Counted from the stretch's first letter, positions 33,657 through 49,788 are shown. The stretch is 49,788 nt of DNA from a virus (IMGVR_UViG_2718217868_000004:1-49788); one strand, 5' to 3'. Notes: a model not told the origin generated them from the sequence alone. Program-made: numbers and translations.

Positions 33657-33911
33657 TTAATATTTGTAGCGGTTTTCCGGGAGAAACGCGTATTCGTATG
33701 TGAAGTTGAATGCCTCGTTTTCAGTGTTAAATCGGCGTTCGGTGATATCACTCCAGCGTCCTCCCCTGAAATACTTCTGAGCAACCCACTTTCCCTCAAA
33801 CGGGAATACGGCATATGCACCGACATACCGATTATCATTATGCGGATCGGGATATGAGTCACCTTCTGCCAGAACGTAAAACTTGATTCCGCTTACAATG
33901 AGGCAGCCCAT
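33657..33911 (-). CDS. Hypothetical protein in low-GC island
   Basis: 84-aa ORF; start/stop abuts the next gene; AT-rich surrounding DNA. Confidence 0.45.
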   Translation of the reverse strand: MGCLIVSGIKFYVLAEGDSYPDPHNDNRYVGAYAVFPFEGKWVAQKYFRGGRWSDITERRFNTENEAFNFTYEYAFLPENRYKY

Positions 33912-34168
33912 TACTTCTTCTCATTCTGCGCAGCCATATCCAGATAACGCGAATCGGATGCTTTCGGCAGCGTCAGGCTCTGCTCGCGGTAGTAACGAAC
34001 GCGCTCCATGAAGTATTCGCGAAGATTCTCTGGCTGCTCGCGGGCCACCTGCTCAGCGATAACTGGCATGTTTAGGCGTTCTTTGTACGCCACACCAGAA
34101 GCAGCAAGGTCAACGTTCACCTTGTCCTGTTCTTCTTTTGATTTTGCTGCGATGTTATGGCTAGACAT
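33911..34168 (-). CDS. Hypothetical protein in low-GC island
   Basis: 85-aa ORF co-oriented and contiguous with its neighbour. Confidence 0.45.
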
Positions 34169-34260
34169 GATGAATCCCCCTCAATGCTTTGAGAAGGATT
34201 ATACAAAGAAAAACCGCCGAAGCGGTTTTGTAGTTTTCAAATATTCATCTCAATATCTGG

Positions 34261-34527
34261 CTAGTTGATATCAAATGCCAGTGGATTTGGGCGAACAGCG
34301 TTTATTTGTCCAATGACCCATTGATGATTGTAGGCGGTTCCTACAGGTAGAAGATACCCGTAAGTACCATCTTTAAGCGTCACATGCATACACAAATGGT
34401 CTCCACCATCTATATCGTAAATTGAGCCTTGAGGAATAAATTCCTCAGTTTTAATCAGTGTTATGCCGTTATTGCGTGGAAATATATAGTGATGCATTTT
34501 ATAGCTCCTTTGTCGATTGGAGCCCAA
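34261..34527 (-). CDS. Hypothetical protein in low-GC island
   Basis: 88-aa ORF directly downstream of the methyltransferase. Confidence 0.45.
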   Translation of the reverse strand: MGSNRQRSYKMHHYIFPRNNGITLIKTEEFIPQGSIYDIDGGDHLCMHVTLKDGTYGYLLPVGTAYNHQWVIGQINAVRPNPLAFDIN

Positions 34528-34596
34528 TTATATCAAGTTTAAATCTACGTCATTGAAGTAGCAGGATTTGTTACGTCCTGCCCTGAAACTCAGACT

Positions 34597-36585
34597 CTAA
34601 GCCGCTATTTGTTTCGATTGGCATAGTTCCGGCAAATTAGCACGCACCAGCGCTTCAGCGAACGGCGGTGGCACCGCGTTACCGCAGCGGGCAACCTGTT
34701 TATCCTTCGCGTACTTCTTGCCCCGGTAGTCCTGGTCGATGATGTACCAGTCCGGGAAGCCCTGCGCCCGGTACAGTTCGCGCGGCTGTAACATGCGCAT
34801 ACCAATATCAACAATGCGATACGTCACGCCATCGATCACCACCAACCCGGTACAATCCTCACCACAGTATTTGCGCAGGAACGCCAGCGTTTGTTGCGCG
34901 CGTTCTTCGTCGTACTCATCTACGGCAAGATGAGTTTCAACGTTCCCTACATGCAGGCCACCAGCCGTGACAGTCGGCATTGGCGCGTCGGTGCGTTGTC
35001 CATCCCGGCAGGTTCCGCGCAATTTAACCAGGTGAGAAGCAACCACAGCATGGTGATCGACGGTGGTCACAGAATGCATCGGCTCATCCATCCCCACTCC
35101 GGCGCCCTGGTAATTCCCGCCGTAATGTTTAATGAGATGTGCAGCGGCAACCGCAAATTTATTACCGCCAGCGGTGACCGTGCCAAGCGGGCTATCAAGT
35201 TTCAGCACACGCGGCTCTTGCCCTGGACGTTCGCCATAACCCATCTGAATCAGCGTTGGCGTCACCAGCTGTGATTTACCGCCACCGCCCGCGGTGATAG
35301 TTGCGCTCGGTTCGTCTGCCCGGTGGCCGATACTGGCACCAAACTGCCGGGCAATAACCGGAGCCACCAGGCAACTGCGCGATTGCTTCAGAATAGTGTG
35401 AGCGGGTTTATTTAGTGGGCGCGGCTTCGCCTGATATTCACTGCCCCCATTGCCAGCCAGGAACGGAGTGATCGCCGCCTCAACCAACCCAAGAGCATGA
35501 CCATTGCCGCCCGGGCGCACCGACGTCCCAGCTGTGACAGTGGGCACAGGTTCGGTAACGGGCTGCCCGGTTGCGCCAGTACGGAACTTTGTCAGGTGTG
35601 GAACGGCTAACGCGTAGCCGTGGGTTTTCGTAATGGTCTGCAGAGGCTCTCTCAGCGCCTGCCCACGGAAACAGTCGTATTTCCCTTTGGTCGTCGTGTG
35701 GTTGCACTTGACGATGAACGGCGACGCGCTCTCGATCACAAACCGCTGGATGCCACGAGCGATGCGTTTGAGCGTATTTTCAGCCAGTGGCTTTTTGCGG
35801 TCGAATATCGACGGTGCCGGAATGGTCCAGTCGATACACTCCGCAGCTGTACGCCATGGCGCCAACTTTCCACTCTGCACAGCTGGAGATTTCGGGTCGC
35901 CGTGGGTCGGGTCCGGCCAGGTCACCGGCATACCATCGCAACGCATTACCATGAAGAAACGCTTCCTGATGGTCGGTGCGCCAAAGTCGCAGGCGCGCAG
36001 CTCACGATGATCAACAGCGTAACCCAGCCCGGCCACCAGTTGCTGCGCCAGTTCGCCGTCGGCAGTAATACCCAGGAACTCGCAGCACTCCGCCAGCGCC
36101 GGATGACCGGCAGGAATACCACCGGATAGCATGCCGCAGAAAGCCTCGAAGGTCTCACCAGTACGCAGGGGATTTGGACGTAACCCACCATCAGCAGATT
36201 CGATAAGCGGCCCCCAGGTGCGGAACTCTTCAACGTTCTCCAGCATCATCACACGGGGACGTACCGCCAGCGCCCAGCGAATGACAATCCACGCCAAACC
36301 ACGAATCTCTTTCTCTACCGGCTTTGAACCTTTAGCCTTTGAGAAGTGACGGCAATCAGGGGAAAACCATGCCAGCCCCACCGGGCGGCCAGCGGTCGCT
36401 ACGATGGGATCGACATCAAACACCGATTCGCAGTAGTGCAGTGTATCCGGGTGGTTCGTAGTGTGCATCGCAACAGCGTTCGGGTCGTGGTTAATCGCAA
36501 TATCCACACTACGACCGATCGCCAGCTCAATGCCCGTGCTCGCCCCGCCGCCGCCGGCAAAGTTATCAACGATGATTTCTCTCAC
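34597..36585 (-). CDS. Orphan DNA cytosine-5 methyltransferase; start at GTG overlapping the upstream stop
   Basis: Motif I FAGGGG, PC-type catalytic motif (SPDC) and ENV motif (LENV); GGAGAAA RBS before a GTG that overlaps the upstream TGA; no restriction endonuclease gene nearby. Confidence 0.8.
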   Translation of the reverse strand: MREIIVDNFAGGGGASTGIELAIGRSVDIAINHDPNAVAMHTTNHPDTLHYCESVFDVDPIVATAGRPVGLAWFSPDCRHFSKAKGSKPVEKEIRGLAWIVIRWALAVRPRVMMLENVEEFRTWGPLIESADGGLRPNPLRTGETFEAFCGMLSGGIPAGHPALAECCEFLGITADGELAQQLVAGLGYAVDHRELRACDFGAPTIRKRFFMVMRCDGMPVTWPDPTHGDPKSPAVQSGKLAPWRTAAECIDWTIPAPSIFDRKKPLAENTLKRIARGIQRFVIESASPFIVKCNHTTTKGKYDCFRGQALREPLQTITKTHGYALAVPHLTKFRTGATGQPVTEPVPTVTAGTSVRPGGNGHALGLVEAAITPFLAGNGGSEYQAKPRPLNKPAHTILKQSRSCLVAPVIARQFGASIGHRADEPSATITAGGGGKSQLVTPTLIQMGYGERPGQEPRVLKLDSPLGTVTAGGNKFAVAAAHLIKHYGGNYQGAGVGMDEPMHSVTTVDHHAVVASHLVKLRGTCRDGQRTDAPMPTVTAGGLHVGNVETHLAVDEYDEERAQQTLAFLRKYCGEDCTGLVVIDGVTYRIVDIGMRMLQPRELYRAQGFPDWYIIDQDYRGKKYAKDKQVARCGNAVPPPFAEALVRANLPELCQSKQIAA

Positions 36586-36839
36586 GCGTATTTCTCCATA
36601 GCGGTGGCCAGTGACTGGGCGGCGTTTACGATGGCTGGTACCGGCATTTTCTCCAGCCACATACGGTTGATGTGATGCTTCAGGCGGCGCTGGTGATGCG
36701 CCGGGAGATCCCCGGCACTTTCAATCTGGCTATATACCATTCCCACCTCAGCAGGCCAGACGGTTTCGGTCACATCCACCAGCAGCAGGTTTTCCAGTTC
36801 GACGATGCGTTTCGTGGCGTATTCCAGTTGAGGTTCCAT
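36582..36839 (-). CDS. Hypothetical protein translationally coupled to the methyltransferase
   Basis: 85-aa ORF whose stop TGA overlaps the methyltransferase GTG start. Confidence 0.45.
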   Translation of the reverse strand: MEPQLEYATKRIVELENLLLVDVTETVWPAEVGMVYSQIESAGDLPAHHQRRLKHHINRMWLEKMPVPAIVNAAQSLATAMEKYA

Positions 36840-37165
36840 CAGTCCTCCTTAAATCTGACGCCCGCCACTCGCAGGGCATGCTCAACGTCGAAACGCGAAA
36901 GCCATTGGCCGTTATCTTTGGGGATCATTACGCCGCGCTCTGATTCGTTAATTGGATGCCCAGGTCGGACGTTGTACCCTGCCGGCAGCTTCACGGTTTC
37001 AGCGCGCGCCGCCAGCACTTCATCAATCACCTTCACAGCATCAGCCATTGCGTAGCCGAGATTACCGCCGTCGCTTTGTGCTGCTGCGTTGCTGAGTATT
37101 TCGCTTATCTGGTGCAGGCGATCGAGTGATACAGGACCGTGCGCCGGGTGGTTGTTAGTTGTCAT
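36839..37165 (-). CDS. Hypothetical protein
   Basis: 108-aa ORF in operon-like tight spacing. Confidence 0.45.
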   Translation of the reverse strand: MTTNNHPAHGPVSLDRLHQISEILSNAAAQSDGGNLGYAMADAVKVIDEVLAARAETVKLPAGYNVRPGHPINESERGVMIPKDNGQWLSRFDVEHALRVAGVRFKED

Positions 37166-37168
37166 GGG

Positions 37169-37387
37169 TTAGTCCTCCCTGTACGGATTTAATTTGTTGT
37201 GCAGTTTGTTAAATGGCCCCCATACGATGGAGCTATACCACTCAGCTATCTTTTCTGCCTGTTCTCCTGCTAACCAGATGAGGACTATCGGTGATATTGG
37301 AATCATTAAAATAAGAAAGAGAAGGAAAAATAGAGCCTCTTTAACACGGCTTTGGCGCGGATAATTCTTCAGGAATATTTTGGTCAC
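37169..37387 (-). CDS. Small membrane protein
   Basis: 72 aa with a central hydrophobic helix (FFLLFLILMIPISPIVLIWLA). Confidence 0.4.
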   Translation of the reverse strand: MTKIFLKNYPRQSRVKEALFFLLFLILMIPISPIVLIWLAGEQAEKIAEWYSSIVWGPFNKLHNKLNPYRED

Positions 37388-37761
37388 AAGTTATCCCCCT
37401 CTTGATACCGCTCGAACCAGAACACAACTGGTGCGTTAGTCTGTTTAACCAGGCCAAATGATTCCGCTGTGCGGTAACTTCTTGACGCACGGCGAGTTAC
37501 ATCAACCTGAGTGGCTATGCGGCTGCGAAAGTCTTCTACTGTGCTGCACATTTTGAACAAGTTGCATGGAATGCATGCTGGAACCATGTTGCTGACCGTG
37601 TCATTTTCTGGCCTGTCCATTGCGTAGCCGTTGCTGATATTTCTTCGTACCGCTTCTACATGGTCTGCATGCCACTTATCGCCAAGTTCACAGCCGCAAT
37701 AAGCACAGCGACCGCCAAACTTCATGCGCAGTTCTGCACGCTGTTTTTTCGTCAGTGCCAT
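37384..37761 (-). CDS. HNH endonuclease
   Basis: CAYCGC...HADHV...N...PACIPCN zinc-binding HNH motif. Confidence 0.7.
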   Translation of the reverse strand: MALTKKQRAELRMKFGGRCAYCGCELGDKWHADHVEAVRRNISNGYAMDRPENDTVSNMVPACIPCNLFKMCSTVEDFRSRIATQVDVTRRASRSYRTAESFGLVKQTNAPVVFWFERYQEGDNL

Positions 37762-37762
37762 C

Positions 37763-38308
37763 TCATTCCCCCTTCACGCCAATGCCAGCGGCGCGGTCAA
37801 TGCGTTCAATTTCTGCCAGAATAAGAGCGCCAGCTTTTACCAAGTCGCAGCGTGCTCCTGATTGCTTCCACCAATCAGGCGACCACGGCCAATGTGCTGG
37901 AGTGGAGAAACCTTGGTTGTGCGCATGAATTGCGTAACAAGCCGCTGCATCTGCTAATTCGCTATTTTGATATGCGTTGTCATGTTCAGGAGTCCATCCT
38001 TCAACCGACTGTTGCCGCTGACGTTCGGCTACCACATCCAGAATTGCTGGATTGAATGAACGCGCCTCCAGTTCTGCTATGCGCTTCTCTGCGGCTTCCA
38101 GCTCATCAAGCAGCGCCAGCACGGTGGCGGGGTTGGCTGCGGCGATAAATGCAGCATCACGCGCTTCGTTTTCACTGAATACCATGGCTATTTGCTCATG
38201 GTTCACGCCGTCAGTGGAGTAAATCTCATCGTCGAACTCAACAGCCCACCGGCCTTTCGTCGCCTTCTCCTCTGCTTCCCGTAATCCACGTTTGTCGATG
38301 TTGCTCAT
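37763..38308 (-). CDS. Ead/Ea22-like protein with DUF550-like C-terminal domain
   Basis: N-terminal pattern ...NPATVLALLDELEAAEKRIAELE and C-terminal WTPEHDNAY...; family call from memory. Confidence 0.45.
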   Translation of the reverse strand: MSNIDKRGLREAEEKATKGRWAVEFDDEIYSTDGVNHEQIAMVFSENEARDAAFIAAANPATVLALLDELEAAEKRIAELEARSFNPAILDVVAERQRQQSVEGWTPEHDNAYQNSELADAAACYAIHAHNQGFSTPAHWPWSPDWWKQSGARCDLVKAGALILAEIERIDRAAGIGVKGE

Positions 38309-38559
38309 TGGGCGGCCTCCTCCATGGCTGGGTCTGCTGGTAAAGTCATGTGCGGCACTTCAATCAGTTCTGCCCGAGCATCAGCCGTGTTAAGCGCCAT
38401 TAATGCGACGATCCGCTTCTGCTCAGCATCCATTCGTAACGCTACTGTCTTGCCGTTCATATTGAAGAACACCGCAACGTTTTTGATATCTTCGATTTTC
38501 ATACCCCTACCCTCCCCCAAACCATCAATACCCTTCTCATCGCCGCGCTGTTGCGGCAC
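38305..38559 (-). CDS. Hypothetical small protein (probable start at 38502, overlapping the Ren-like stop)
   Basis: Internal ATG overlapping the upstream stop in an ATGA arrangement. Confidence 0.4.
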   Translation of the reverse strand: MPQQRGDEKGIDGLGEGRGMKIEDIKNVAVFFNMNGKTVALRMDAEQKRIVALMALNTADARAELIEVPHMTLPADPAMEEAAQ

Positions 38560-39026
38560 TCCTGGCAGATCACGTTTGTGTCCGTCCGCTGAATTAACTT
38601 CGACTTACCCTGCTTCATGCCAGGTATCGTGTCAGGGGCGAAGCGCATTCCGTAGCTGGTCAGGCTGTAAAGGCGCTGGCCGTATTTTCCTTCGCAGCGG
38701 ATCAGGCCGTCTGCCAGCAGCGTGCTCACCGTTCCGGATATCTTTTTGGTGTCCATGCCGATAAGCCCTGCCAGTTTGGCGTTGTTCAACCCTGGGTTGT
38801 TGCGCAGGGCTGCCAGCACCTGCTCACGGATTGTTATGTTCATGTCACACCATCCCGTTCGACTTGTTGCGGTTGTACTTGGCCAGCAGCAGCTGGATCG
38901 GCGTCGGCCCTTGCTCGGCAGCTGGTGCGGCAATAGCCCGGCGTACCGGCGGCACTGGCTTACCCTCGGTGACGCGCCTTTCCCACATGTCCAGCAGATC
39001 GCCTGCCTCGCGTGCCAGTTCACCAT
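38499..39026 (-). CDS. Ren-like protein (probable start at 38843, just after the P stop)
   Basis: C-terminus ...ECRNSAAMRRVLMVWG resembles lambda Ren as remembered; position immediately after P. Confidence 0.55.
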   Translation of the reverse strand: MVNWHARQAICWTCGKGASPRVSQCRRYAGLLPHQLPSKGRRRSSCCWPSTTATSRTGWCDMNITIREQVLAALRNNPGLNNAKLAGLIGMDTKKISGTVSTLLADGLIRCEGKYGQRLYSLTSYGMRFAPDTIPGMKQGKSKLIQRTDTNVICQECRNSAAMRRVLMVWGRVGV

Positions 39027-39534
39027 GCGTTAACTGGCGCTCGGTGCTGCGGTGGCGCAATTCTACGCAAATGTGGTACATGACCGGCTGCGACCATGGA
39101 AATTGCTCGCTGGAGATGAATTCGAACGAGCGGTTACGCCAGTCCCAGTATTCGGCGATCACCTGGTCAACGTTGACGCCCAGCGCGCCGCCGCTCTGCT
39201 TGCACCAGGCGACGAACTGGCCCGGCGACGGCAGGAATGGGCGCTCCTGGCGGCGGGCAATGCGCATGCCGGCATCGACCTGAGCCATGGTGTGGATCCC
39301 GTTCTCCTGAAACGCCAGCAGCCACTGACGGCGGAATTCGTTCAGGTCTTCCTGGGTGCGGAAGTTCGCCATGCTGGCCGGGAACGCGGCGCGCAGCTCG
39401 TTGAACAGCTTGTTGAATACCTGCGCCACCTGCTCGACCGGCGCGCACTCCTGGTACTGCTCTGGCAGGTTATGGGCCATGCGGCTCATCTGCTCGCGGT
39501 CGTGGTTACGCATCTGCTCTGCAAGAGATTTCAT
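38845..39534 (-). CDS. Replication protein P (helicase loader)
   Basis: Strong resemblance to lambda P as remembered (e.g. ...RRQERPFLPSPGQFVAWC...); follows O. Confidence 0.85.
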   Translation of the reverse strand: MKSLAEQMRNHDREQMSRMAHNLPEQYQECAPVEQVAQVFNKLFNELRAAFPASMANFRTQEDLNEFRRQWLLAFQENGIHTMAQVDAGMRIARRQERPFLPSPGQFVAWCKQSGGALGVNVDQVIAEYWDWRNRSFEFISSEQFPWSQPVMYHICVELRHRSTERQLTHGELAREAGDLLDMWERRVTEGKPVPPVRRAIAAPAAEQGPTPIQLLLAKYNRNKSNGMV

Positions 39535-40472
39535 CGGATCACCCCATAGGCCCAGTCAGTGTTGTTGAAGTCCAGATCTGGCTTGACAGCGCGCTGCTCA
39601 CCTCCGGCGTTACGCTGCATTGTCAGCTTGTCCCACTGCTTACGCAGGCTTTCGGGACTCAGGATGTTGGTCTGCCAGAAGTGGTGTTTGCTAGCCCAGT
39701 CATACAGCGCGCAGATGTCCTGGTGCGACCGGTTGTCTATCTGGCGCATCAGGCGAACAGTGTTAGACCAGGAGGTCATGTCCGGGGCTTTGCAGGTTGG
39801 GTTAATCAGCTTCACCCTGGAGGAAATCCACTTAGCTGTCTCGAGGTCTTCAGCAGAGCCCCACTTCGCACCGGATGGTGTGTAGACCGCAGCTTCAGGA
39901 TGAGTTGATAAAAATTTCTTCAGACGTGCGTCAGAGGATTCGTCAGAATTCTCGGACGAAGATCTTTTAATACTGTTCTTGTTCTTGTATTGGGTGTCTA
40001 CCGTTTTCGGGAAGGTTATTCCTGATTTCGGGAAGGATTTTCCCGTTTTCGGGAATTTTCTTCCCGTTTCCGGTTTGTCTAAAATCCATGCTGAAAGGTC
40101 AGTGTTTACACCGACGATTTTCATCATGCCCTGCTTCTGTGAAAAGATGATTTTGCGTTCTGCGAGAGACTTAAGCGCGTCCGATACATGCGTATCGCTC
40201 AGGCCCGTAAGCTCGGCAATAACCGTATTTGTCACGCGGTCCTGTTTCTTGTTCCAGCCGTAGGTAAGCCAGATCACCGCCTCAAAACATTGCCATTCCC
40301 GGCCTGACAGTCTCAGGCGAGGCTTAAGCTGTTGGATCTCGTTAGCGACCTTGGTATACCCGTTCGACAGGTCGGCCATACGACCTCCCGGTTGTTCGGT
40401 TTTATTTGGGAAATTGATTATTTCAGCGGTGTTTGACATACTGTTCTCCGCAATTACGCACTGTTTTTGCAC
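39531..40472 (-). CDS. Replication initiator O (probable start at ATG 40439)
   Basis: N-terminus MSNTAEIINF... resembles lambda O; ori iterons lie within the coding sequence. Confidence 0.85.
   Translation of the reverse strand: MQKQCVIAENSMSNTAEIINFPNKTEQPGGRMADLSNGYTKVANEIQQLKPRLRLSGREWQCFEAVIWLTYGWNKKQDRVTNTVIAELTGLSDTHVSDALKSLAERKIIFSQKQGMMKIVGVNTDLSAWILDKPETGRKFPKTGKSFPKSGITFPKTVDTQYKNKNSIKRSSSENSDESSDARLKKFLSTHPEAAVYTPSGAKWGSAEDLETAKWISSRVKLINPTCKAPDMTSWSNTVRLMRQIDNRSHQDICALYDWASKHHFWQTNILSPESLRKQWDKLTMQRNAGGEQRAVKPDLDFNNTDWAYGVIR
40001..40078. repeat. Origin of replication iterons (about four TTTCGGGAAGG-like repeats at roughly 21-bp spacing) inside O
   Basis: Directly visible tandem repeats followed by an AT-rich stretch; the same arrangement as lambda ori. 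Confidence 0.7.
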
Positions 40473-40523
40473 CTGAAAGCCGTTGGTGTTCGCGCACCGC
40501 GGCTTTCGCCATTTTTGAACCGG

Positions 40524-41063
40524 TCATATAGCCCCCAGCATCATCTGCACCATCTCCATCAGTGGACCGGTTAACCCAGGGTCAACGCGATACATCTCCA
40601 CGATCCCCTCGCTCAACTCTTTCAGCTTTTGATGGCGTGGCGCATCCATTGCGACGGCAATCTTCGCTTCGCTGGTTTCTTTCTCCAGCCGAGCCAGGCG
40701 GGCCATAACGTTGTCTTCTGGTAGCAGACGGTTGCGGTATTCAATCGGCAGGACCGCCAGGATTGCCGGAGTCAGCTGGCGAACGTTCTCACGGTACCGT
40801 TCGCTGTTGAAATGGTTATCCAGGAAGCGGAAAAGCTTCTGCCGCTTTCGGCAGAGATCGTCAGGGAAAGTGATGTCATAACCACCCTGCGCCCGGTACT
40901 CTTCGACGATCAGAGCAGAAACGACATCCTGACCATCTACACCCGCCCATGAACGAACGGCATTTCGAATATCTTCGTGACACGGCCCCTTATAGGTTTG
41001 AGCGCGATTTATCACCGCTTGTTGCGGTACTCCTGTATCCTGGTAAAACGTAAGTGATTGCAT
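40524..41063 (-). CDS. YdaT-like protein (CII-analog family of Rac-type immunity regions)
   Basis: Segments EEYRAQGGYDITF and TPAILAVLPIEYRNRL resemble E. coli Rac YdaT as remembered; located right after the Cro-like gene. Confidence 0.55.
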   Translation of the reverse strand: MQSLTFYQDTGVPQQAVINRAQTYKGPCHEDIRNAVRSWAGVDGQDVVSALIVEEYRAQGGYDITFPDDLCRKRQKLFRFLDNHFNSERYRENVRQLTPAILAVLPIEYRNRLLPEDNVMARLARLEKETSEAKIAVAMDAPRHQKLKELSEGIVEMYRVDPGLTGPLMEMVQMMLGAI

Positions 41064-41094
41064 AGTGCTTTCCCTTTCGTGGTTAAAGCGCCGG

Positions 41095-41322
41095 TCAGGC
41101 TACTTTTGGTTTGCTGATTTCAAGAATTTGGGTGGTGGTAAAGCGACCACCTGAGGCCTCAGCAATTTTCGATGCATAAGCTGTCTCACCGGTGTAATCA
41201 GTACGTGGCAAGCACCCACTATTGATCCACTTGTAAATTGCTCGCGGAGTCCGCTCGCATGCTTTGGCCACCACGGGTACGCGAATCAATTTGATGATTT
41301 CGCCAAGGCTTGTTGGTTGCAT
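41095..41322 (-). CDS. Cro/YdaS-like HTH regulator
   Basis: 75 aa with HTH (ERTPRAIYKWINSGCLP), divergent from the cI-like repressor. Confidence 0.7.
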   Translation of the reverse strand: MQPTSLGEIIKLIRVPVVAKACERTPRAIYKWINSGCLPRTDYTGETAYASKIAEASGGRFTTTQILEISKPKVA

Positions 41323-41337
41323 TTTTTAACCCTCAAT

Positions 41338-41376
41338 ATGAACTGTAAGTACATATTATGTCGGAACTGATAGTTC
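41338..41376. promoter_or_regulatory. OR-like operator region: two imperfect palindromes (ATGAACT-N3-AGTACAT and GAACT-N3-AGTTC) between cro and cI
   Basis: Directly visible palindromes; the same 17-bp motif recurs near 43331-43347. Confidence 0.5.
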
Positions 41377-42113
41377 ACGCAAGAGATATTATGATTGAAC
41401 CTATGGTTCAGGAAGAAAAAGCGCGAAAAGACTTTTCCCATAGGCTAGCGCTGGCCTGCGATAAAGCTGGTTTGCCGGTTCATGGTCGTCAGGCTGAGAT
41501 AGCCAAAAAGATGAAGTTGACACCAAAGGCCGTAAGCAAATGGTTTAACGGGGAATCAATTCCAAGACGCGGGAAGCTGCAAGAGCTTGCTGCGAGTATT
41601 GGTACAACTTCAACTTACCTGTTAGGTGACAGCGAGGTTGATGGAATATCTGAGGGACGCTTGCAGAAATCGACAGAAATATTTCGCATAGATGTGCTCA
41701 ATGTATCTGTCAGTGCAGGCCCGGGCGTGATCAATAGCGAGTTCGTGGAGGTGCTTCGCTCTGTGGAATACTCAGTTGAAGATGCGCGCCAAATGTTCAA
41801 CGGACGAAAGCAGGAACAAATCCGCATCATCAACGTCCGCGGAGACAGCATGTCTGGCACGATAGAGCCGGGTGATCTGCTTTTTGTCGATATCAGCATC
41901 CAACACTTTGATGGTGATGGAATTTACGCTTTCCTGTACGACGAAACAGCTCATGTTAAGCGACTTCAGAAGATGAAAGACAAACTACTGGTAATCTCAG
42001 ACAACCAGACCTATCGCCCGTGGGAGCCAATTGAGAAGGAAGAGATGAACAAGATTTTCGTCTTCGGAAAGGTGATCGGCAGCATGCCGCAGACCTACAG
42101 GAAGCATGGTTAG
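41358..42113 (+). CDS. CI-like repressor with HTH and S24 (LexA-like) autopeptidase domain; probable start at ATG 41391
   Basis: HTH (GRQAEIAKKMKLTPKAVSKW), S24 catalytic Ser (GDSM) and Lys (HVKRLQK); AAGAGA RBS before 41391. Confidence 0.9.
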   Translation: MSELIVHARDIMIEPMVQEEKARKDFSHRLALACDKAGLPVHGRQAEIAKKMKLTPKAVSKWFNGESIPRRGKLQELAASIGTTSTYLLGDSEVDGISEGRLQKSTEIFRIDVLNVSVSAGPGVINSEFVEVLRSVEYSVEDARQMFNGRKQEQIRIINVRGDSMSGTIEPGDLLFVDISIQHFDGDGIYAFLYDETAHVKRLQKMKDKLLVISDNQTYRPWEPIEKEEMNKIFVFGKVIGSMPQTYRKHG

Positions 42114-42181
42114 CAAACTAACAGTGGCCAGATGATACGTTTGGGTGATTATTTTTATTTTTCACAGCAATAGGATGATTT

Positions 42182-42523
42182 ATGACACAGTTTCAACTTG
42201 CGTTAATCGCCAGAGAAGTTGATGGAGAAGTCATCCATCTTCGCACCAAAGACGGATACATCAATGCCACATCAATGTGCAAGTCTGCAGGGAAGCTACT
42301 TGCCGACTATACACGACTAAAAACAACACAAGATTTTTTTGATGAATTATCACGCGATATGGGGATTCCCATATCGGAGTTAATTCAATCATTTAAAGGC
42401 GGAAGAGCAGAGAATCAAGGGACTTGGGTTCATCCAGACATCGCAATTAATTTAGCTCAGTGGCTATCTCCAAAATTTGCAGTGCAAGTATCGAGATGGG
42501 TGCGTGAGTGGATGTCAGGCTAA
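42182..42523 (+). CDS. KilA-N domain protein (standalone)
   Basis: 113 aa with KilA-N pattern (DGYINATSMCKSAGK...GTWVHPDIAINLAQWLSPKF); RBS AGGATGA; no terminator between cI and this gene. Confidence 0.75.
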   Translation: MTQFQLALIAREVDGEVIHLRTKDGYINATSMCKSAGKLLADYTRLKTTQDFFDELSRDMGIPISELIQSFKGGRAENQGTWVHPDIAINLAQWLSPKFAVQVSRWVREWMSG

Positions 42524-42562
42524 AGAGCGCCTGCCGAACTCCCTATCCACCTTAAGCGGTAT

Positions 42563-42943
42563 ATGACAAACCGAGGCAGGGCTCCTCATACGCACTTTTC
42601 TATGCTTAATGAACTGACGTTTAACTTGGTTGCGCCACTTGAACAAGCCGGATATACGCTGCCTGAAAAAATGGTTCCTGATATTTCAGAAGGTAGGGTT
42701 TTCTCGCAATGGCTCCGTGACAACCGGGGTATTGAGCCGAAGACATTCCCAACATATAACCATGAGTACCCAGATGGCCGGACATTCCCGGTACGTCTAT
42801 ACCCAAACGAATATCTTGCAGATTTCAAACAGCACTTCAACGAAGTGTGGCTGCCTCAGTACGCTCCTAAATATTTTGCTGAACGAGACCAAAGGGCATT
42901 GACGTTGATTGAGAAAATCATGCTGCCTGACCTTGATTCCTAA
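42563..42943 (+). CDS. Hypothetical protein, last gene of the cI operon
   Basis: 126-aa ORF followed within 10 bp by a strong terminator. Confidence 0.5.
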   Translation: MTNRGRAPHTHFSMLNELTFNLVAPLEQAGYTLPEKMVPDISEGRVFSQWLRDNRGIEPKTFPTYNHEYPDGRTFPVRLYPNEYLADFKQHFNEVWLPQYAPKYFAERDQRALTLIEKIMLPDLDS

Positions 42944-42952
42944 ATGCCACAG

Positions 42953-42978
42953 CCCGGCCACCGCGCCGGGTTTTTATT
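42953..42978 (+). terminator. Rho-independent terminator ending the cI - KilA-N - orf126 operon
   Basis: CCCGGC-caccgc-GCCGGG stem followed by TTTTTATT. Confidence 0.65.
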
Positions 42979-43198
42979 GCCCTTTCCTCACGAACTCCGC
43001 CGCATCCCGCAATACACCTTTGTGAATCATATTGCCCACGGTTTTTCGCTTCGCTTCCAGTCGATCGACAATAGCCTCACAGTCAATCACCACACCGTCG
43101 ATTATCAACTCAACAACCGCCCCACCAATCTCACCAGCTATGAAAGCTGCGCGATCTTCCAGCAATTCATCACGTGACATATCCATACCTAAGCCCAT
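42974..43198 (-). CDS. Hypothetical small acidic protein convergent with the cI operon
   Basis: 74-aa ORF; weak RBS; real start may be the internal ATG near 43186. Confidence 0.35.
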   Translation of the reverse strand: MGLGMDMSRDELLEDRAAFIAGEIGGAVVELIIDGVVIDCEAIVDRLEAKRKTVGNMIHKGVLRDAAEFVRKGQ

Positions 43199-43259
43199 AG
43201 CAATACCCTGTTTGGTGTTTTTTTGAGCATAGCAAGACTAGAGAAAAAAATAAATAATC

Positions 43260-43350
43260 TTAAAGTTCATATTGTTATGCGTTTATGAACTTGCCACACC
43301 ACTTAAATGTACTATTGGTACTTTACTTCAATGAACTTATAGTACATTAT
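43260..43350 (+). promoter_or_regulatory. OL/PL-like region: operator copy ATGAACT-TAT-AGTACAT plus additional AGTTCAT/ATGAACT half-sites and promoter-like hexamers
   Basis: Same 17-bp motif as at OR; TTTACT and TACATT hexamers flank it; upstream of the recE operon. Confidence 0.45.
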
Positions 43351-43525
43351 CATCCCATCGCGAAACACTAAGCGCATCAAGTTCAAACGTTCCGCCAGCC
43401 TGGCGACAAGGGCAAACACAGAAGTGAGCTTCGCGGTGGTGAATTGCAGAGTTAAAACGCTCAACCGTGAAGATCAGCGCCGCGGCACCACCAGCGAAGT
43501 TCACTCAGAAAAACTGGAGAACATC

Positions 43526-43732
43526 ATGGTTCATCAGCACTACGGTACACAGACAGTAAACCGCGGCGCAGTTCAGCCGGGGATGCTCGTCAAACACAAA
43601 GACTCAACCTGGACGGCATCAGCTAACGCTCGCGGACGTTTGTATCTGCATCGCGGCGTAGAAATGACTTACACCAAGGATTTGCTGGTTGAAGTTTATC
43701 TGAACGGTCTGGGGCATGGACTCAGCCACTAG
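43526..43732 (+). CDS. Hypothetical small protein, first gene of the early-left operon (track ORF starts at 43424)
   Basis: Internal ATG with GGAGA RBS 6 nt upstream. Confidence 0.4.
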   Translation: MVHQHYGTQTVNRGAVQPGMLVKHKDSTWTASANARGRLYLHRGVEMTYTKDLLVEVYLNGLGHGLSH

Positions 43733-43743
43733 CGGAGGATGTC

Positions 43744-43905
43744 ATGTTAGACAAGAAATGCGGATATTGCGGCAAGCCGGTTAAAACGGAGGAAGTAATC
43801 AAGAGCACCCTTCTCTATCGCAACGGCTCACAGCTGGCGCGCAAAGAAAAAGAGTATTGCTCCAAACGTTGCGCTTCGCACGACCAGATGGCTCACGAAG
43901 GCTAA
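43744..43905 (+). CDS. Small zinc-ribbon protein (not in the ORF track, below 60 aa)
   Basis: 53-aa ORF with GGAGGA RBS and CGYCG...CSKRCAS Cys pairs; similar position to the small Zn-binding protein near recE in Rac. Confidence 0.45.
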   Translation: MLDKKCGYCGKPVKTEEVIKSTLLYRNGSQLARKEKEYCSKRCASHDQMAHEG

Positions 43906-44044
43906 CGTAAAACCCGCGCAAGGCGGGATCTACGTCCGGTGGTACCGACCAAAGTTACACCGGAAACAACATTAAAACCAAAGTTAACCCAATGGGCGCT
44001 ATCAATGGTCCGGGGATTCTAACACCCAAAAAAGAGGATCTCAC

Positions 44045-46954
44045 ATGGAATTTTTCCATCTGATAAAAGCCAGTCAGAAGTCTGGCAAGAAAGATGCAGT
44101 GATTTGGTTCACTGCGAAAAGTGTAGCGCGCGCCAATCTCCAACTCGATGTGGCACTGGAAGAAGCCGGAATTGAAGAAACTGGCCGCGGTAAAGATTAT
44201 GCCAAACCAATCCGCACCGATTTCCCGGTATATGACGACCTGCCGGAAGAAGGCGCAGTGGATTACACCTGGTGCGAACGCTACGAACTGCAGAACGATG
44301 ACCGCACCTGGCTGCCAAAAGTCACAGCTGAAAACTCTGACGAGAAAACGGCTCAGACCGTTGATAGTCACATAACTACTGAGTCAACGCTGCCAGAAAC
44401 CGCTGGCATCACGCTGGACGAACACGACGACGACTCAACCCTCTACCCGGTAGTGCAGATGCCGTTTCGTAAGCAACTGCTTTCCCAGTTCACCGCCGAC
44501 GAACTGCGCCACCACGTAACCCACGAAGAGTACGAAGCTATCGGCGCGCTGGAGATGGACACTGATAACAGTTACGTCCAGAACTTGCTGTTAGCTGCTG
44601 AGAACTGCCCGGAAGTGAAGGGTTACGACACCAAAGACCTGTGGCGCTACACCGATGCCATTCGCAAAGTGTTCAGCCAGGACAAGCGTCACGAACTCGC
44701 GCTGGTACTCCGTTTCACCAGAATGTGGGCGGCGACTGATTACATTGACCGTGGCATCCTGGCGCGTGAATGGGCCGCCGGTAATCGCATCAGTAGTGTG
44801 CAGCGTACTGATTCCGGCACTAATGCCGACGGCGGTTACGTCACTGACCGTGGACCTGACGCACACCACACACTGGACACTCTCGATTTAGAGATTGCGT
44901 GTGCCCTTCTGCCTATGGACTTCAACCACTTCGAGATCCCGGGCAGCATTCTTCGTCGCGCTAAAGAAATCGTGACCAAAAAAGAAGAACCATGGAAATC
45001 ATGGAGCAACATCCTGCGCAATCAGCCAGGCGTTCTGGGTGTTAACCGCACGGCTATTTTTAACCTGGTACGTATCGCACCGGAAAATATTCATTTAACT
45101 CCTGTCGCTCACCTGGAATTTGTTAACCAGACCATGACAGCCGCGTTCAATTCCGCGGTCGAGTTATTGCCGTTGCATGAGGCTGAACCCGCAGCACAGG
45201 AAATTCCCCAACCTGAAGGTAAGGAGTCTCCGCGCAAATCCTTCTGCACTCACGAAGAGAACCTGCAACGCGTGCGTGAAGAAGGAGCACGCCGCCGCGC
45301 AGAGGAAGCGGCAGCACAACCGCAGAAAGTCGAACAAGAACTGGTTAAAAATGTCGGCAACGGAATATTCGACGTTACGGCTTTGCTGCAGAACTCAGCA
45401 ACTCATGGCACGAAAAAGGCTACGGAGACCACCAGCAATGTGCAGGTTCAAGAAACTGTCAGTGATGAAAAACAAGCTGGTGATGAAGTACAGCCAGGCG
45501 AAAGCAGTCTGGAGTCTGGTGAAGAGTCAGATACCAGCCAGAAGGACGATGTAGACCAGAATACGGATTCTGTCGCCAAAAATAGCGATTCTGTAAGCCA
45601 AACCGAACCAGTTGCAGCACAAACCGAGCCAGAAGCGCAATCTGACGAACCAGCTGTTGTTTATCCCGCTTATTTCGAGCCAGGCCGCTATGAAGGGCTG
45701 CCAAACGAGGTTTACCACGCCGCCAACGGCATCAGCTCAACCCAGGTGAAAGATGCGCGCGTTTCGCTGATGTACTTCAATGCGCGCCACGTAGAGAAAA
45801 CCATCGTCAAAGAGCGCTCAGCGGTGCTGGACATGGGCAACTTGGTGCATGCGCTGGCGTTGCAGCCAGAACAGCTCGATGAAGAATTTAGCGTTGAACC
45901 CGTAATTCCGGAAGGTGCATTTACCACCACGGCAACGATCCGCGCGTTTATTGATGAGTACAACGCCAGCCTGCCAGCGCAACTGAGCGCAGACGATATC
46001 AAAGCTTTGCTGGATGAATACAACGCCACCCTGCCAGCGCTGGTGCCGCTGGGCGCTAGCCTGGATGAAACGGCGCAGAACTATATGGCGCTGCCAGCTG
46101 AATTCCAACGTATCGATGCAGATCAGAAGAAGACAGCAACAGCAATGAAGGCGTGCATCAAAGAGTACAACGCCACCCTGCCAGCGCAGATTAAAACCAG
46201 CGGCAGCCGCGACGTACTACTCGAACAACTTGCGATTATCAATCCTGACCTGGTCGCGCAGGAAGCTCAGAAGCTGCAACCGCTGAAAGTCTCTGGCACG
46301 AAGGCCGATCTGATTCAGGCCGTGAAGGCAGTCAAACCAGATGCAGTGTTCGCCGACGAGCTGCTCGATGCTTGGCGCAACAACCCGGAAGGGAAAGTGC
46401 TGGTTACCCACCAGCAACTTGCCACCGCGCAGGCAATTCAGTCAGCACTGCTCTCGCACCCGACCGCCGGCATGCTGCTGACCCACCCTAGCCGAGCCGT
46501 TGAGGTGAGCTACTTTGGTTTTGACGAGGAGACGGGCTTGGAAGTTCGTGTGCGCCCTGACCTTGAGATCGACCTGGATGGCGTGCGTATAGGTGCAGAC
46601 CTGAAAACCATCAGCATGTGGAATGTTAAGCAGGAAAGCCTGCGCGCCAGGCTACACCGGGAAATTATTGAACGTGATTATCACCTGAGCGCGGCTATGT
46701 ACTGCGAAACCGCAGCGCTGGATCAGTTCTTCTGGATTTTCGTCAACAAAGACGAGAACTACCACTGGATCGCCATCATCGAGGCATCCGCTGAACTACT
46801 GGAGCTGGGTATGCTCGAGTACCGCAAAGCGATGCGCAATATCGCAACCGGATTCGACACAGGTGAATGGCCAGCGCCAATCACTGCTGACTACACCGAC
46901 GAACTGAACGACTTCGACCTGCGCCGCCTTGAAGCGCTGCGTACTCAGGCATAA
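44045..46954 (+). CDS. recE: Exodeoxyribonuclease VIII (RecE-like)
   Basis: 969 aa; several N-terminal blocks resemble E. coli Rac RecE as remembered (e.g. DFPVYDDLPEEGAVDYTWCERYELQ, ATDYIDRGILAREWAAGNRISS); C-terminal nuclease-like domain. Confidence 0.8.
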   Translation: MEFFHLIKASQKSGKKDAVIWFTAKSVARANLQLDVALEEAGIEETGRGKDYAKPIRTDFPVYDDLPEEGAVDYTWCERYELQNDDRTWLPKVTAENSDEKTAQTVDSHITTESTLPETAGITLDEHDDDSTLYPVVQMPFRKQLLSQFTADELRHHVTHEEYEAIGALEMDTDNSYVQNLLLAAENCPEVKGYDTKDLWRYTDAIRKVFSQDKRHELALVLRFTRMWAATDYIDRGILAREWAAGNRISSVQRTDSGTNADGGYVTDRGPDAHHTLDTLDLEIACALLPMDFNHFEIPGSILRRAKEIVTKKEEPWKSWSNILRNQPGVLGVNRTAIFNLVRIAPENIHLTPVAHLEFVNQTMTAAFNSAVELLPLHEAEPAAQEIPQPEGKESPRKSFCTHEENLQRVREEGARRRAEEAAAQPQKVEQELVKNVGNGIFDVTALLQNSATHGTKKATETTSNVQVQETVSDEKQAGDEVQPGESSLESGEESDTSQKDDVDQNTDSVAKNSDSVSQTEPVAAQTEPEAQSDEPAVVYPAYFEPGRYEGLPNEVYHAANGISSTQVKDARVSLMYFNARHVEKTIVKERSAVLDMGNLVHALALQPEQLDEEFSVEPVIPEGAFTTTATIRAFIDEYNASLPAQLSADDIKALLDEYNATLPALVPLGASLDETAQNYMALPAEFQRIDADQKKTATAMKACIKEYNATLPAQIKTSGSRDVLLEQLAIINPDLVAQEAQKLQPLKVSGTKADLIQAVKAVKPDAVFADELLDAWRNNPEGKVLVTHQQLATAQAIQSALLSHPTAGMLLTHPSRAVEVSYFGFDEETGLEVRVRPDLEIDLDGVRIGADLKTISMWNVKQESLRARLHREIIERDYHLSAAMYCETAALDQFFWIFVNKDENYHWIAIIEASAELLELGMLEYRKAMRNIATGFDTGEWPAPITADYTDELNDFDLRRLEALRTQA

Positions 46955-46959
46955 GGGGA

Positions 46960-48078
46960 ATGATGATGGAAAACACGAATATCGTAACCGCTGAACAGCA
47001 GACTCCAAACACGATCTCAGCCAGCAATGCCATTTTCAACGTGCAGGCTTTAACCCAGCTTCAGTCTGTCGCCGGGTTGATGGCACAGGCAGCCGTAACG
47101 GTGCCTGAGCACCTCCGCGGCAATCCGGCAGACTGCATGGCCATCATCATGCAGGCGATGCAGTGGGGTATGAACCCTTACGCCGTGGCGCAAAAGACGC
47201 ACCTGGTTAACGGTGTCCTGGGATACGAAGCGCAACTGGTTAATGCGGTAATCTCCAGCTCAAACGCCATCGTTGGCCGCTTTCACTATGAGTACGAGGG
47301 CGACTGGTCGAAATGTGCCAGCAGCCGCGAGATAACCGTTAAAAAGCCTGCGAAAGGTGGCGGGACGTACGACAAGAAAGAAATGGTACGCGGTTGGGAA
47401 AGTGCTGATGAACAAGGACTGTCGGTACGGGTAGGTGCCGTTATTCGCGGTGAAAGTGATATCACCTGGGGAGAGCCTGTTTTCCTCTCCAGCGTAATCA
47501 CACGTAATTCTCCACTTTGGGTATCAAACCCGAAACAGCAGATCGCTTATCTGGCACTCAAATACTGGGCGCGCCTGTATTGCCCTGCAGTTGTTCTTGG
47601 TGTGTACACCCCTGATGAGATTGAACAGCGCACAGAAAAAGAGATCAACCCAACGCCGCAACGCGTTAGCCTGGCTGATATCTCAGGTGACACCGTCACA
47701 ACCACGCAAAGCGCACAGGAATCGTCGGTAAATGTCGACTCTCTTGCCGATGATTTCCGCGAACGCATCGAATCTGCTCAGGACGTGGATAGCGCCAAAT
47801 CGCTGCGTGCCGACATTGAAACGGCGAAAGCTACGCTGGGATCCGCACTATTCACCGAGCTGAAAAACAAAGCCGTAAAGCGTTATTACCTAGTGGATGC
47901 ACGCAACAAGGTTGAGGAGGCTATTAAATCCCTGCCCCAGCCCGACGAGCCGCATGCAGCCGAACGGTTCGCTGAAGCCGAGCGCATGCTTGCATCTTCA
48001 AAGCGTCACTTAGGCGATGAACTGCACGATCAATTCAGCATCACCCTGGCGGATATGAAACCGGAATACGTGGCCTGA
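46960..48078 (+). CDS. RecT/Bet-family single-strand annealing protein (partner of RecE)
   Basis: 372 aa immediately after recE; segment AIIMQAMQWGMNPY...NGVLGYEAQ resembles the conserved core of lambda Bet and RecT; longer than Rac RecT. Confidence 0.55.
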   Translation: MMMENTNIVTAEQQTPNTISASNAIFNVQALTQLQSVAGLMAQAAVTVPEHLRGNPADCMAIIMQAMQWGMNPYAVAQKTHLVNGVLGYEAQLVNAVISSSNAIVGRFHYEYEGDWSKCASSREITVKKPAKGGGTYDKKEMVRGWESADEQGLSVRVGAVIRGESDITWGEPVFLSSVITRNSPLWVSNPKQQIAYLALKYWARLYCPAVVLGVYTPDEIEQRTEKEINPTPQRVSLADISGDTVTTTQSAQESSVNVDSLADDFRERIESAQDVDSAKSLRADIETAKATLGSALFTELKNKAVKRYYLVDARNKVEEAIKSLPQPDEPHAAERFAEAERMLASSKRHLGDELHDQFSITLADMKPEYVA

Positions 48079-48116
48079 CGAAACCGGGAGGGGTAACCCT
48101 CCCTCAAGGAGATTAT

Positions 48117-48359
48117 ATGCGACTGATCAATCGAGGAAGTAAGCAATCACCTTTAGCTCGCCAAGCATGCGACATCGCGCTGGCAGCTCACTTGCAAACA
48201 TATGGCGACTATGGGCGAAGCAAGATGAAAGAGACTTATACGGTGAAGGTTGAAGGCGTGAAAGTCTGGGTGGAGGTGGTGAACCGAAAGGCGAGCTACG
48301 TGGCCACAGCGATGACCGGCATGCGCCGTCTCCGCTCCCTGCCCGGGCAGGTTGGTTGA
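48117..48359 (+). CDS. Hypothetical small protein
   Basis: 80-aa ORF with AAGGAG RBS after a GNRA-loop hairpin. Confidence 0.4.
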   Translation: MRLINRGSKQSPLARQACDIALAAHLQTYGDYGRSKMKETYTVKVEGVKVWVEVVNRKASYVATAMTGMRRLRSLPGQVG

Positions 48360-48400
48360 AAAAGATTTTGAATGGCCCGAACGGGCAACTGGAGAGAGCT

Positions 48401-48598
48401 ATGGATGATATTTTGGTAACGTCAGACCTGACCAGTCGCTACAAAATTTCACGCAAAACCCTTTGGTCATGGCAAAGTGCAGACACAATGCCTCGGGGCT
48501 TCGTATGCCCGTTCCCACCCCCTGACTGGCCCGGCAACCCTAACCGCTGGCGCTCTGAGTCAATCAAAGAGTGGGAGGATAAAAAGAAGATAAATTAA
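48401..48598 (+). CDS. Excisionase / AlpA-family DNA-binding protein (track ORF starts at 48356)
   Basis: 65 aa from the ATG with GGAGAGAG RBS; pattern ...[10 protein letters not shown]...[10 protein letters not shown] is typical of AlpA/Xis HTH proteins. Confidence 0.6.
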
Positions 48599-49788
48599 CT
48601 GAAGGGCTCTCCGATGATCTCTTCAAGATGGCTCTGCCAAACGCGGAGCCAGTGTTTCTGATCATCGATATAGTCATGAAGGTTGTAATGCGCCATAACC
48701 CCCACCATCTGATGCCCGAGCAGCTTTTCAATTACGTGCGGCGGGCAACCTAACTCAGAGAGATTTGTGGCTATCGTCCGCCTCATATCATGAAGCGACC
48801 ACTCTGCCATACCTGTTCCATTCCAAATAGAACGGGCGTAATTGGATGCCACAGGTGAATGAACGGGCGAATCTTTGATCCCGCCATCAATTTTACGTTG
48901 TGAAGTCACCAGGTGATTGGTGTTTATTTTCTTGAGGTGATTTCTGACCAGGTTAACGGCGGCGTCTGAGAGTCCCCTTCTAATATGTACCCGAGTTTTA
49001 TAACTGCCCGCAGGCACGACCCACTCATTATCATCCAATCGAAACCATGATCTCTCACTAAGTCGAATCTCAGCCGTACGGCATCCGGTAAGCATAATAA
49101 ATTTCACCAGGAAAACGGACTCTATCGACATATGGCTTTTCAACCACTGATAGATTTTGCGCAGATCGTCATCGTCCATCCTGCGAGTTCTCTTTTTAGG
49201 CTTTTGCCCGACATCAGATGGCAGTAATCCCTCGAGTGGGTTTGAGGCGATCACACTTCTGTTAACGCAGAACCTAAACGCCCGTTTGCACAGCGAAAGC
49301 ATGTAATGAGCCATCACCCTGCTTTCTATAGAATCGAAGACGTTGATCCAGTGCATTTTCGCTGTGTTATCGACTTTGACATTCTTCATCGGTTCGGCGA
49401 TATGTTTCTCAAACACCTGGCGATAGTAATCGACTTTAACTAGCCCGTTAGCGATACAGTGCCTTTCAATCCAGTAATTGAACGCTTCGGCAACGGACAT
49501 CGCTTCCTGTCGGGTCTGCTTATCCAGCTTCACCTGCTCTCGCGGATCCAGTCCCTCAGTTAACCAGTTTCTGAATTGTTGGCGACGCTCTCTTGCCTGG
49601 GTGATACTCATTGCAGGATAATCACCAACATTGAGTTTTACCGCTTTACCGGCCCAGCGATACCGATAGAAAAATGATATTTTTCCGGCCTGGCTGATTC
49701 TGGCGTTGAGCCCGTGCGAATCAGAAATAATCTCGATATCATCTCTTTTCTTGCCGAGCGCCTTCCTGAGCTTTGTGTCGGTGATCAT
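48595..49788 (-). CDS. Tyrosine integrase (P4-like family)
   Basis: 397 aa; N-terminal arm-binding-like region and C-terminal catalytic region with HxxR...Y signature (AHYNLHDY); gene start coincides with the window end. Confidence 0.9.

Follow-up and report, generated by a model that had tools for sequence, protein, structure and literature searches.

Several described phages and prophages bear on the organisation of a lambdoid early region. Phage lambda has divergent PR and PRM promoters, a PL promoter with three operators, N with boxA/boxB, and Q. In phi80 (NC_021190), N and nutL are annotated, the recombination module is of the Exo/Bet/Gam type, and xis and int are convergent and overlapping. 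HK022 and HK75 have putL after PL, putR after cro, and a Nun gene. The prophages Rac, Gifsy-1 and Gifsy-2 share the order kil, ydaE, recE, recT, xis/int, with a YdaT-domain regulator to the right of the immunity switch; YdaT proteins are functional equivalents of CII (PMC9986795, PMC5917428). Lambdoid phages without an N homologue have already been noted (PMC12315714), and mEp237 (NC_019704) has a leader-to-kil junction with no gene in the N position.

We analyzed positions 40524–49788 of IMGVR_UViG_2718217868_000004, a viral stretch of 49,788 nucleotides that we call the window. This region is very probably the immunity region and the PL (leftward early) operon of a lambdoid prophage of the phi80/mEp237 type, built by ordinary modular exchange. 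An initial annotation had described it as a mosaic joining Rac-like immunity and recombination genes to lambda-like replication genes and Q, with no recognisable N. Its mosaic character is borne out by a module map showing segments from differing phage relatives. Its Rac-like immunity gives way to cI, Cro and operators of the HK022/HK75 type and a cII closer to phi80 and mEp237. This is textbook lambdoid mosaicism, and its practical value lies in a corrected annotation: a phi80/mEp237-type prophage at att80 with HK022-type immunity and Gifsy-type RecET, to which are added a broken BstA gene and an IsrB-like small RNA (sRNA) gene missing from the RefSeq record. The interest that is left, modest and testable, is in delayed-early expression without recognisable N, nut or put, especially the passage of a terminator before Q.

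Prophage identity and module map

The 9265-bp region 40524–49788 is 100% identical to sequence in E. coli H6 and H5, and the whole window corresponds to NZ_CP010170 2805924–2855711. The window edges are annotated gene boundaries, an invertase stop codon on the left and the int ATG on the right, and the host neighbours of the prophage are yciI on one side and kch on the other. The 17-bp phi80 attP core was found 184–203 bp past the right end of the window (L001 15449–15468), and a 17-bp direct repeat of the att80 core ∼120 bp outside the left end, where yciI has its 3′ end (L003 2288–2304). The complete prophage occupies att80, the site of phi80, and not a tRNA gene, the type of target suggested earlier.

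The exact module combination is confined to two strains, H5 and H6, among 5426 complete E. coli genomes, and the left operon is common to ∼80 of the 5426. The top matches to the region in the phage collection were mEp237 (97.5% identity, 74% query coverage) and HK225 (NC_019717; 96.8%, 63%), with phi80 matching at 99.5% over int-xis-DUF4060. Modules were mapped by local blastn with a significance limit of E < 1e-8. At this limit Rac and lambda, which had been put forward as parents for alignment, gave zero nucleotide matches. Best matches along the sequence were as follows.

38242–40963, mEp237, 98.5%
38803–41100, phi80, 89.7%
41089–42114 (cro, cI), Klebsiella phage ST15-VIM1phi2.1, 75.7%, and HK75, 70%
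42122–42981, PhiR5_2, 96%
43243–43359 (OL/PL), HK75 and the Klebsiella phage, 73–76%
43382–49788, mEp237, 97.9%
44724–49788, HK225, 98.9%
48123–49788, phi80, 99.2%

Judged by these alignments, every module has a sequenced relative; the most divergent is the cI/cro/OL-PL block, at 70–76%, and the others stand at 96% or above. The comparisons give direct support to the gene identities and to synteny. Shared with mEp237 and HK225 are the left operon kil-ydaE-recE-recT-DUF4060-xis/int (97.9–98.9% nucleotide identity), the replication genes (98.5%) and the att80 site. The immunity block (window 41089–43381) bears no relation to its mEp237 counterpart, made up of two helix-turn-helix regulators and gp34–37. 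HK225 differs from the window in having a cI of the phi80 type, a longer RecE, three additional genes and an intrinsic terminator that precedes kil.

Immunity switch and leftward operon

The switch comprises these features.

40470–40520 (+), terminator of an oop/M3-like antisense RNA between the cII analogue and O (hairpin at 40474–40508, −23.4 kcal/mol, then UUUUUG)
40524–41063 (−), cII analogue with a YdaT domain, 179 amino acids (aa) (Pfam YdaT_toxin, PF06254, 88.5 bits; phrog_163, 'CII-like activator')
41095–41322 (−), Cro analogue, 75 aa (phrog_35)
41338–41354, 41362–41378 and 41394–41410, OR, three operators of 15–17 bp that overlap the divergent PR and PRM
41403–42113 (+), cI-type repressor, 236 aa from the ATG at 41403 (PGAP start at 41391)
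43254–43348 (+), OL, with operators at 43254–43270, 43307–43323 and 43331–43347, and the PL promoter

The operators are directly supported: the consensus ATGWACTnnnAGTWCAT has three copies at OR, three at OL and none elsewhere in the window, a three-operator layout shared with HK022/HK75 and, at PL, with lambda. PL promoter-like hexamers lie at 43315–43343, and the PL/OL DNA aligns at 73–76% with the annotated PL/OL region of HK75 and with the Klebsiella phage. The repressor has the Pfam domains HTH_3 (30.9 bits) and Peptidase_S24 (63.7 bits), and its translation shows the S24 motifs, namely an Ala-Gly site (VSAGPG), a GDSM serine and a VKRL (HVKRL) lysine; it is an S24 cI-type repressor and is predicted to be SOS-cleavable. 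It is 54% identical to HK75 cI, in an alignment that begins at Met 41403, but only 22% identical to phi80 cI, and gave no BLAST match to RacR. A PRM-like −10 at 41390–41395 would put the transcription start at the ATG at 41403, so that the cI mRNA is likely leaderless, as in lambda.

The neighbouring regulators had been called YdaS/YdaT-like, which proved half right. The YdaT domain of the cII analogue is clear at 88.5 bits, and the identity of the protein falls from 84% with mEp237 cII to 58% with phi80 cII and 33% with Rac YdaT. For the Cro analogue the YdaS label is wrong: this protein shares 49% identity with the HK022-type Cro of HK75, did not match the YdaS Pfam profile (PF15943) even at E ≤ 10, and gave no BLAST match to Rac YdaS. 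By contrast, the Cro analogues of loci L012–L017 do carry PF15943. By homology of cI, Cro, OL/PL and OR, the immunity is of the HK022/HK75 type and not of the Rac type. Only the YdaT-domain cII analogue fits Rac-type immunity; the RacR and YdaS parts do not. The annotated M3 RNA of phi80 has the same position as the terminator at 40470–40520, whose sequence is not conserved with phi80.

In a lysogen, the HK022-type S24 cI would bind the three OR and three OL operators, and the bound repressor would silence PL and PR, the latter leading through cro, the YdaT-type cII and the phi80 O/P on to Q. Self-cleavage of cI triggered by the SOS response would free both promoters.

The leftward operon and the convergent integrase gene are laid out as follows.

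43350–43525 (+), PL leader, 175 nt, with the motif AACGTTCCGCCAGCC at 43386–43400 and an 81-nt hairpin at 43424–43504
43526–43732 (+), kil, FtsZ-inhibitor homologue, 68 aa, the first PL gene (phrog_294; NCBIfam FtsZ inhibitor, 60 bits)
43744–43905 (+), YdaE-family zinc-ribbon protein, 53 aa (NCBIfam YdaE, 94 bits, cut-off 35)
44045–46954 (+), RecE-family exonuclease VIII, 969 aa (Pfam Exonuc_VIII and DUF3799 PD-(D/E)XK)
46960–48078 (+), RecT-family single-strand annealing protein, 372 aa (370 aa from the PGAP start at 46966)
48117–48359 (+), DUF4060 protein, 80 aa (Pfam, 118.5 bits; 92.5% identical to the phi80 homologue)
48401–48598 (+), phi80 excisionase Xis, 65 aa (100% aa identity to Xis of phi80 and mEp237; unannotated in RefSeq)
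48595–49788 (−), phi80 tyrosine integrase (Pfam Arm-DNA-bind_3 and Phage_integrase; the ATG at the window end is internal or alternative)

We infer that PL would transcribe kil, ydaE, recE, recT, DUF4060 and xis as one unit, while int, on the opposite strand, would be expressed from a promoter of its own, like int of phi80. Kil shares 100% identity with its mEp237 counterpart and 34% with Rac KilR. RecE and the zinc-ribbon protein had been said to recall Rac, and they do so in gene order and in membership of the YdaE family (40% identity to Rac YdaE). RecE itself is of the Gifsy/mEp237 type, 96.5% identical to that of mEp237 and 22–29% to Rac RecE. Its domains match PF06630 (78 bits, residues 4–181) and PF12684 (44 bits, residues 784–944), and since its NCBIfam exonuclease VIII score of 464 bits falls under the equivalog cut-off of 1269, it belongs to the family without being orthologous to Rac RecE. 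Besides these distances (22–40% for RecE, KilR, YdaE and YdaT), the window differs from Rac in having no RacR/YdaS homologue, racC or ralR, and in its integrase and attachment site.

The recT gene lies directly downstream of recE (recE end 46954, recT start 46960 or 46966), and RecE, a 5′–3′ exonuclease, would form a phage recombination pair with the annealing protein RecT. The 372-aa product had been proposed as the annealing partner of RecE, with the reservation that it might prove unrelated to single-strand annealing proteins. It is not unrelated, matching the Pfam RecT domain (PF03837) at 125.5 bits against a cut-off of 24 (residues 39–228) and phrog_561 with E = 2.6e-165. It is 100% identical to mEp237 RecT, has a Gifsy-type C-terminal domain (64% identical to those of Gifsy-1 and Gifsy-2), and gave no BLAST match to RecT of Rac, Bet of lambda or the annealing protein of phi80 and no match in a PDB sequence search. 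Its length, which had seemed unusual, is standard for its subfamily. In all matching phage records, the C-terminal 144 aa fall within a gene for RecT, an annealing protein or an 'enterohemolysin', or the record is unannotated; these records include Gifsy-1, Gifsy-2, Klebsiella phages and Rac-SA53. Because the 144-aa extension is always part of RecT in Gifsy-1/2, the Klebsiella phages and Rac-SA53, 372 aa is normal for the Gifsy-type subfamily. To judge from other annealing proteins, the extension probably mediates partner binding.

The excisionase had been taken for an AlpA-type protein, an assignment that the profile searches did not support: there was no match to Pfam Phage_AlpA (PF05930) at E ≤ 10, and the sole family match was a weak one to NCBIfam Xis_Gifsy_1 (18.8 bits, below the cut-off of 60). 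Int is 100% identical to the phi80 and mEp237 integrases over 397 aa; their annotated lengths are 402 and 416 aa, and the true int start may lie beyond the window end. The convergent arrangement of xis and int was correctly described, with the xis end at 48598 and the int stop codon from 48595, a 4-bp overlap the same as in phi80.

The search for N, nut and put

The absence of N, nut and put signatures has direct support in empty tblastn, boxA, Arg-cluster, put and Rfam searches, and it agrees with the initial annotation, which had also recognised the first PL gene as a 68-aa protein without an Arg-rich motif. Between PL and kil there is no separate open reading frame (ORF), and the upstream in-frame GTG extension of kil has no Shine-Dalgarno sequence. 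An Arg-rich motif is absent from Kil and from the PL-leader ORFs. In tblastn searches of the window, the N proteins of lambda and phi80, the Nun of HK75 and two LT883142 proteins described below (89 aa and 97 aa) gave nothing below E = 1, and a screen of the PR-operon proteins for Arg/Lys clusters found none that was N-like, with at most 4 Arg in any 10-residue window.

Neither boxA (CGCTCTTA-like) nor boxB was found downstream of PL and PR. The sole YGCTCTTWA match falls within bstA, upstream of PR; it is on the − strand and not on that of PL. The short PL-leader hairpin has no counterpart downstream of PR, and the gap between cro and cII is 31 nt, holding only a ribosome-binding site. For put we looked for a two-stem-loop RNA of ∼65–70 nt with a GGAUGA...CAAUG core directly downstream of PL and PR. 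Matches to the core motif GGATGANNNNCAATG were at chance level, with none near PL or PR. Over its first 76 nt the leader forms a weak fold (−10.9 kcal/mol, z = +0.3), compared with −23.7 kcal/mol and two stems for HK75 putL, and the sequence departs from HK75 immediately past the −10 region of PL. Rfam scans, by E-value over 36000–49788 and at the gathering threshold over the window and seven loci, returned only isrB and no antiterminator, nut or put family. The window thus lacks the N, boxA/boxB and gene between PL and kil of lambda, the N and nutL of phi80, and the putL, putR and Nun gene of HK022/HK75.

An intrinsic-terminator scan of the + strand found no terminator-like site over 43350–48600. 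The next such site, at 48629–48651, corresponds to the annotated 'putative leftward terminator' of phi80. With no intrinsic terminator predicted from PL through xis, a processive antiterminator is most likely dispensable for leftward early expression; the leftward operon is, considering intrinsic sites only, most likely N-independent. The same leader-to-kil junction is present in plaque-forming mEp237 and in ∼60 of the 84 E. coli genomes matching the leader.

The right arm lies outside the region 40524–49788, with O, P, a Ren-like gene, RusA and Q at 31149–40439. O/P, RusA and Q had been called lambda-like. RusA was confirmed, and Q belongs to the lambda Q family (33% identity; Pfam Antiterm, 162 bits). 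O and P match Pfam Phage_rep_O and Phage_lambda_P, but they are phi80 genes, gp15 (O, 100% aa identity) and gp14 (P, 99.6%), with only 39–47% identity to their lambda counterparts. Inside O, 40001–40073 holds three or more tandem 21-bp iterons (TTTTCGGGAAGGNTTTTCCYG), a position matching the annotated gp15-binding origin repeats of phi80. A strong bidirectional hairpin terminator at 34210–34229 (AAAACCGCTTCGGCGGTTTT) stands within the PR operon, with the nin-like genes and Q downstream of it. We found no extra cI operators that would mark a third repressor-controlled promoter for Q, including near the promoter-like site past this terminator. Right after the terminator comes a perfect TATAAT and then a DNA polymerase III theta-subunit moron (33911–34168).

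Four points weigh against our reading of an ordinary mosaic with an N-independent leftward operon. The terminator on the − strand at 34229–34210 argues that the right arm needs some antitermination or an unrecognised regulated promoter. The mEp phage collection has been described as Nus-dependent (PMC11893012), hinting at an N-like function in mEp237. Rho-dependent terminators lie outside what the terminator scan can predict. Finally, the prophage may be defective, with a nonsense codon in bstA and a tape-measure gene annotated as broken.

The PL leader supplies the evidence for two other explanations. In 10 of the 10 loci examined, its invariant motif, AACGYTCCGYNNGCC, precedes the first PL gene, standing ∼25 nt before the ribosome-binding site of that gene, one copy each: the window (43386–43400), L002, L007, L009 and L012–L017. 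In a Klebsiella phage the same leader motif precedes a different ORF, Arg-rich and of 53 aa. In LT883142 the same leader (93% identical) runs into a basic 89-aa ORF (pI 11.5, 22 Arg+Lys) that overlaps a 97-aa gene of the opposite strand tail-to-tail, after which the kil-proximal sequence resumes. In the window and mEp237 the motif is fused to the kil leader, and ∼640 bp are absent relative to LT883142. The coordinates of these genes are as follows.

L009 3617–3886 (+), 89-aa gene
L009 3867–4160 (−), 97-aa zinc-finger-like gene
L012–L017 3001–3282, 89-aa gene

One explanation is that the lineage has lost an N analogue, for which the 89-aa protein is a candidate by its position, leaving the leader motif as a relic and the prophage either impaired in early antitermination or using read-through. 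We consider this unlikely. It would account for the shared leader that leads into the 89-aa ORF in LT883142, and for the motif that stands upstream of the 89-aa gene and is kept in the window. It would also suit the 89-aa family itself, whose 32 clusters are 67–94% identical to the query and nearly constant in length at 89 aa, and whose gene in other Enterobacteriaceae is always the first after the repressor/moron block, ahead of kil-ydaE-recE, at loci with YdaS/YdaT switches. However, no member of the family is named, and the protein resembles no known N: PHROGs gave only a family of unknown function, Pfam and PADLOC nothing, BLAST against phi80 N no alignment, and tblastn against the phage collection no match. 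No locus has a second, nutR-like copy of the motif. The gene pair is present in 2 of 5426 E. coli genomes while ∼80 are without it, mEp237 is a viable phage without the 89-aa gene, and the ∼640-bp event may have been either a deletion or an insertion. The broader proposition that the mEp237/Gifsy-like branch runs its early programme without N/nut/put by an undescribed mechanism, either a leader element or an 89-aa antiterminator family, seems to us quite improbable; were the 89-aa family such antiterminators, no more than a relic of their recognition element would be left in the window.

A second explanation, which we hold very doubtful, is a cis-acting PL-leader RNA, formed by the motif, the hairpin or both, that acts on RNA polymerase in the manner of put or controls translation or stability of the kil message. 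The leader from 43382 is kept at 94–98% across prophages with different immunity regions. The 81-nt hairpin (43424–43504), which precedes the kil ribosome-binding site, is strong at −38 kcal/mol, and the fold of the whole leader has a z-score of −2.6. The PL/OL DNA is HK022-like, and HK022 has putL at that position; an annotated sRNA, kilS, lies upstream of Rac kilR. Yet the leader resembles putL/putR neither in sequence nor in fold, and nothing equivalent lies downstream of PR. Among seven E. coli variants of the hairpin, pairing was kept in 97% of cells, but no two-sided compensatory change occurred and the covariation score did not exceed that of shuffled controls; the hairpin is missing in more distant relatives. 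The hairpin may be a processing site or may serve, in the manner of kilS in Rac, translational control of the toxic kil.

The hybrid of Rac-type immunity and recombination with lambda-type replication and Q, as first drawn, is scarcely credible, since the YdaT domain match, the Rac-like order kil-ydaE-recE-recT, and the Phage_rep_O, Phage_lambda_P and Antiterm profiles with 33–47% identity to lambda O, P and Q are set against nil nucleotide similarity to either parent, an HK022-type repressor and Cro with no RacR or YdaS match, a RecT with no BLAST match to that of Rac, and modules each much closer to mEp237, HK225, phi80 or PhiR5_2.

Remaining genes of the phi80/mEp237-type prophage

Three further genes lie between cI and PL, and an sRNA gene lies between ydaE and recE.

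42182–42943 (+), broken BstA-family defence gene (in-frame TAA at 42521–42523)
42951–42972 (+), intrinsic terminator ending the cI-bstA unit (8-bp GC-rich stem, then TTTATTG)
42974–43198 (−), small conserved gene, 68–74 aa (phrog_3975, E = 4.9e-36), behind PL and transcribed toward cI
43907–44003 (−), IsrB-like sRNA gene (promoter at 44044–44016, terminator at 43927–43913)

BstA is an abortive-infection family (PMC8585504). RefSeq annotates the bstA ORFs 42182–42523 and 42563–42943 as two genes, although they share a frame. Both halves match phrog_6287 BstA, and the C-terminal half also matches PADLOC BstA (67 bits). The PhiR5_2 homologue, directly after its cI, is intact at 253 aa and has GAA where the window has TAA. 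The N-terminal KilA-N domain, the C-terminal BstA domain and the post-repressor position are all present in the window, but a nonsense mutation interrupts the frame and leaves bstA inactivated or in two parts, as a pseudogene or split gene. Homologues of the phrog_3975 gene are found at the same place in HK225 (70% nucleotide identity) and in LT883142, there as a pseudogene with an internal stop.

A separate break affects the tail tape-measure gene (∼11990–14420, −), which RefSeq gives as two pieces, one flagged incomplete, followed by a ∼600-bp unannotated gap. This may mean either that the prophage is defective or that the assembly contains a frameshift. At the left end of the window (1–1998), a serine invertase gene of the phi80 pinL type adjoins two oppositely oriented tail-fibre C-terminal segments, which suggests an invertible host-range switch.

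The IsrB-like gene is antisense to the PL transcript and absent from the RefSeq annotation. It scores 28.6 bits against Rfam isrB (RF01386), where the gathering threshold is 35, and the syntenic HK225 copy scores 38.2 bits; the two are near-identical over the first ∼108 nt and differ in the terminator hairpin. In Salmonella, isrB-1 and isrB-2 adjoin sbcA (recE) in Gifsy-2 and Gifsy-1, respectively (PMC2330248), the place that the IsrB-like candidate has in the window.

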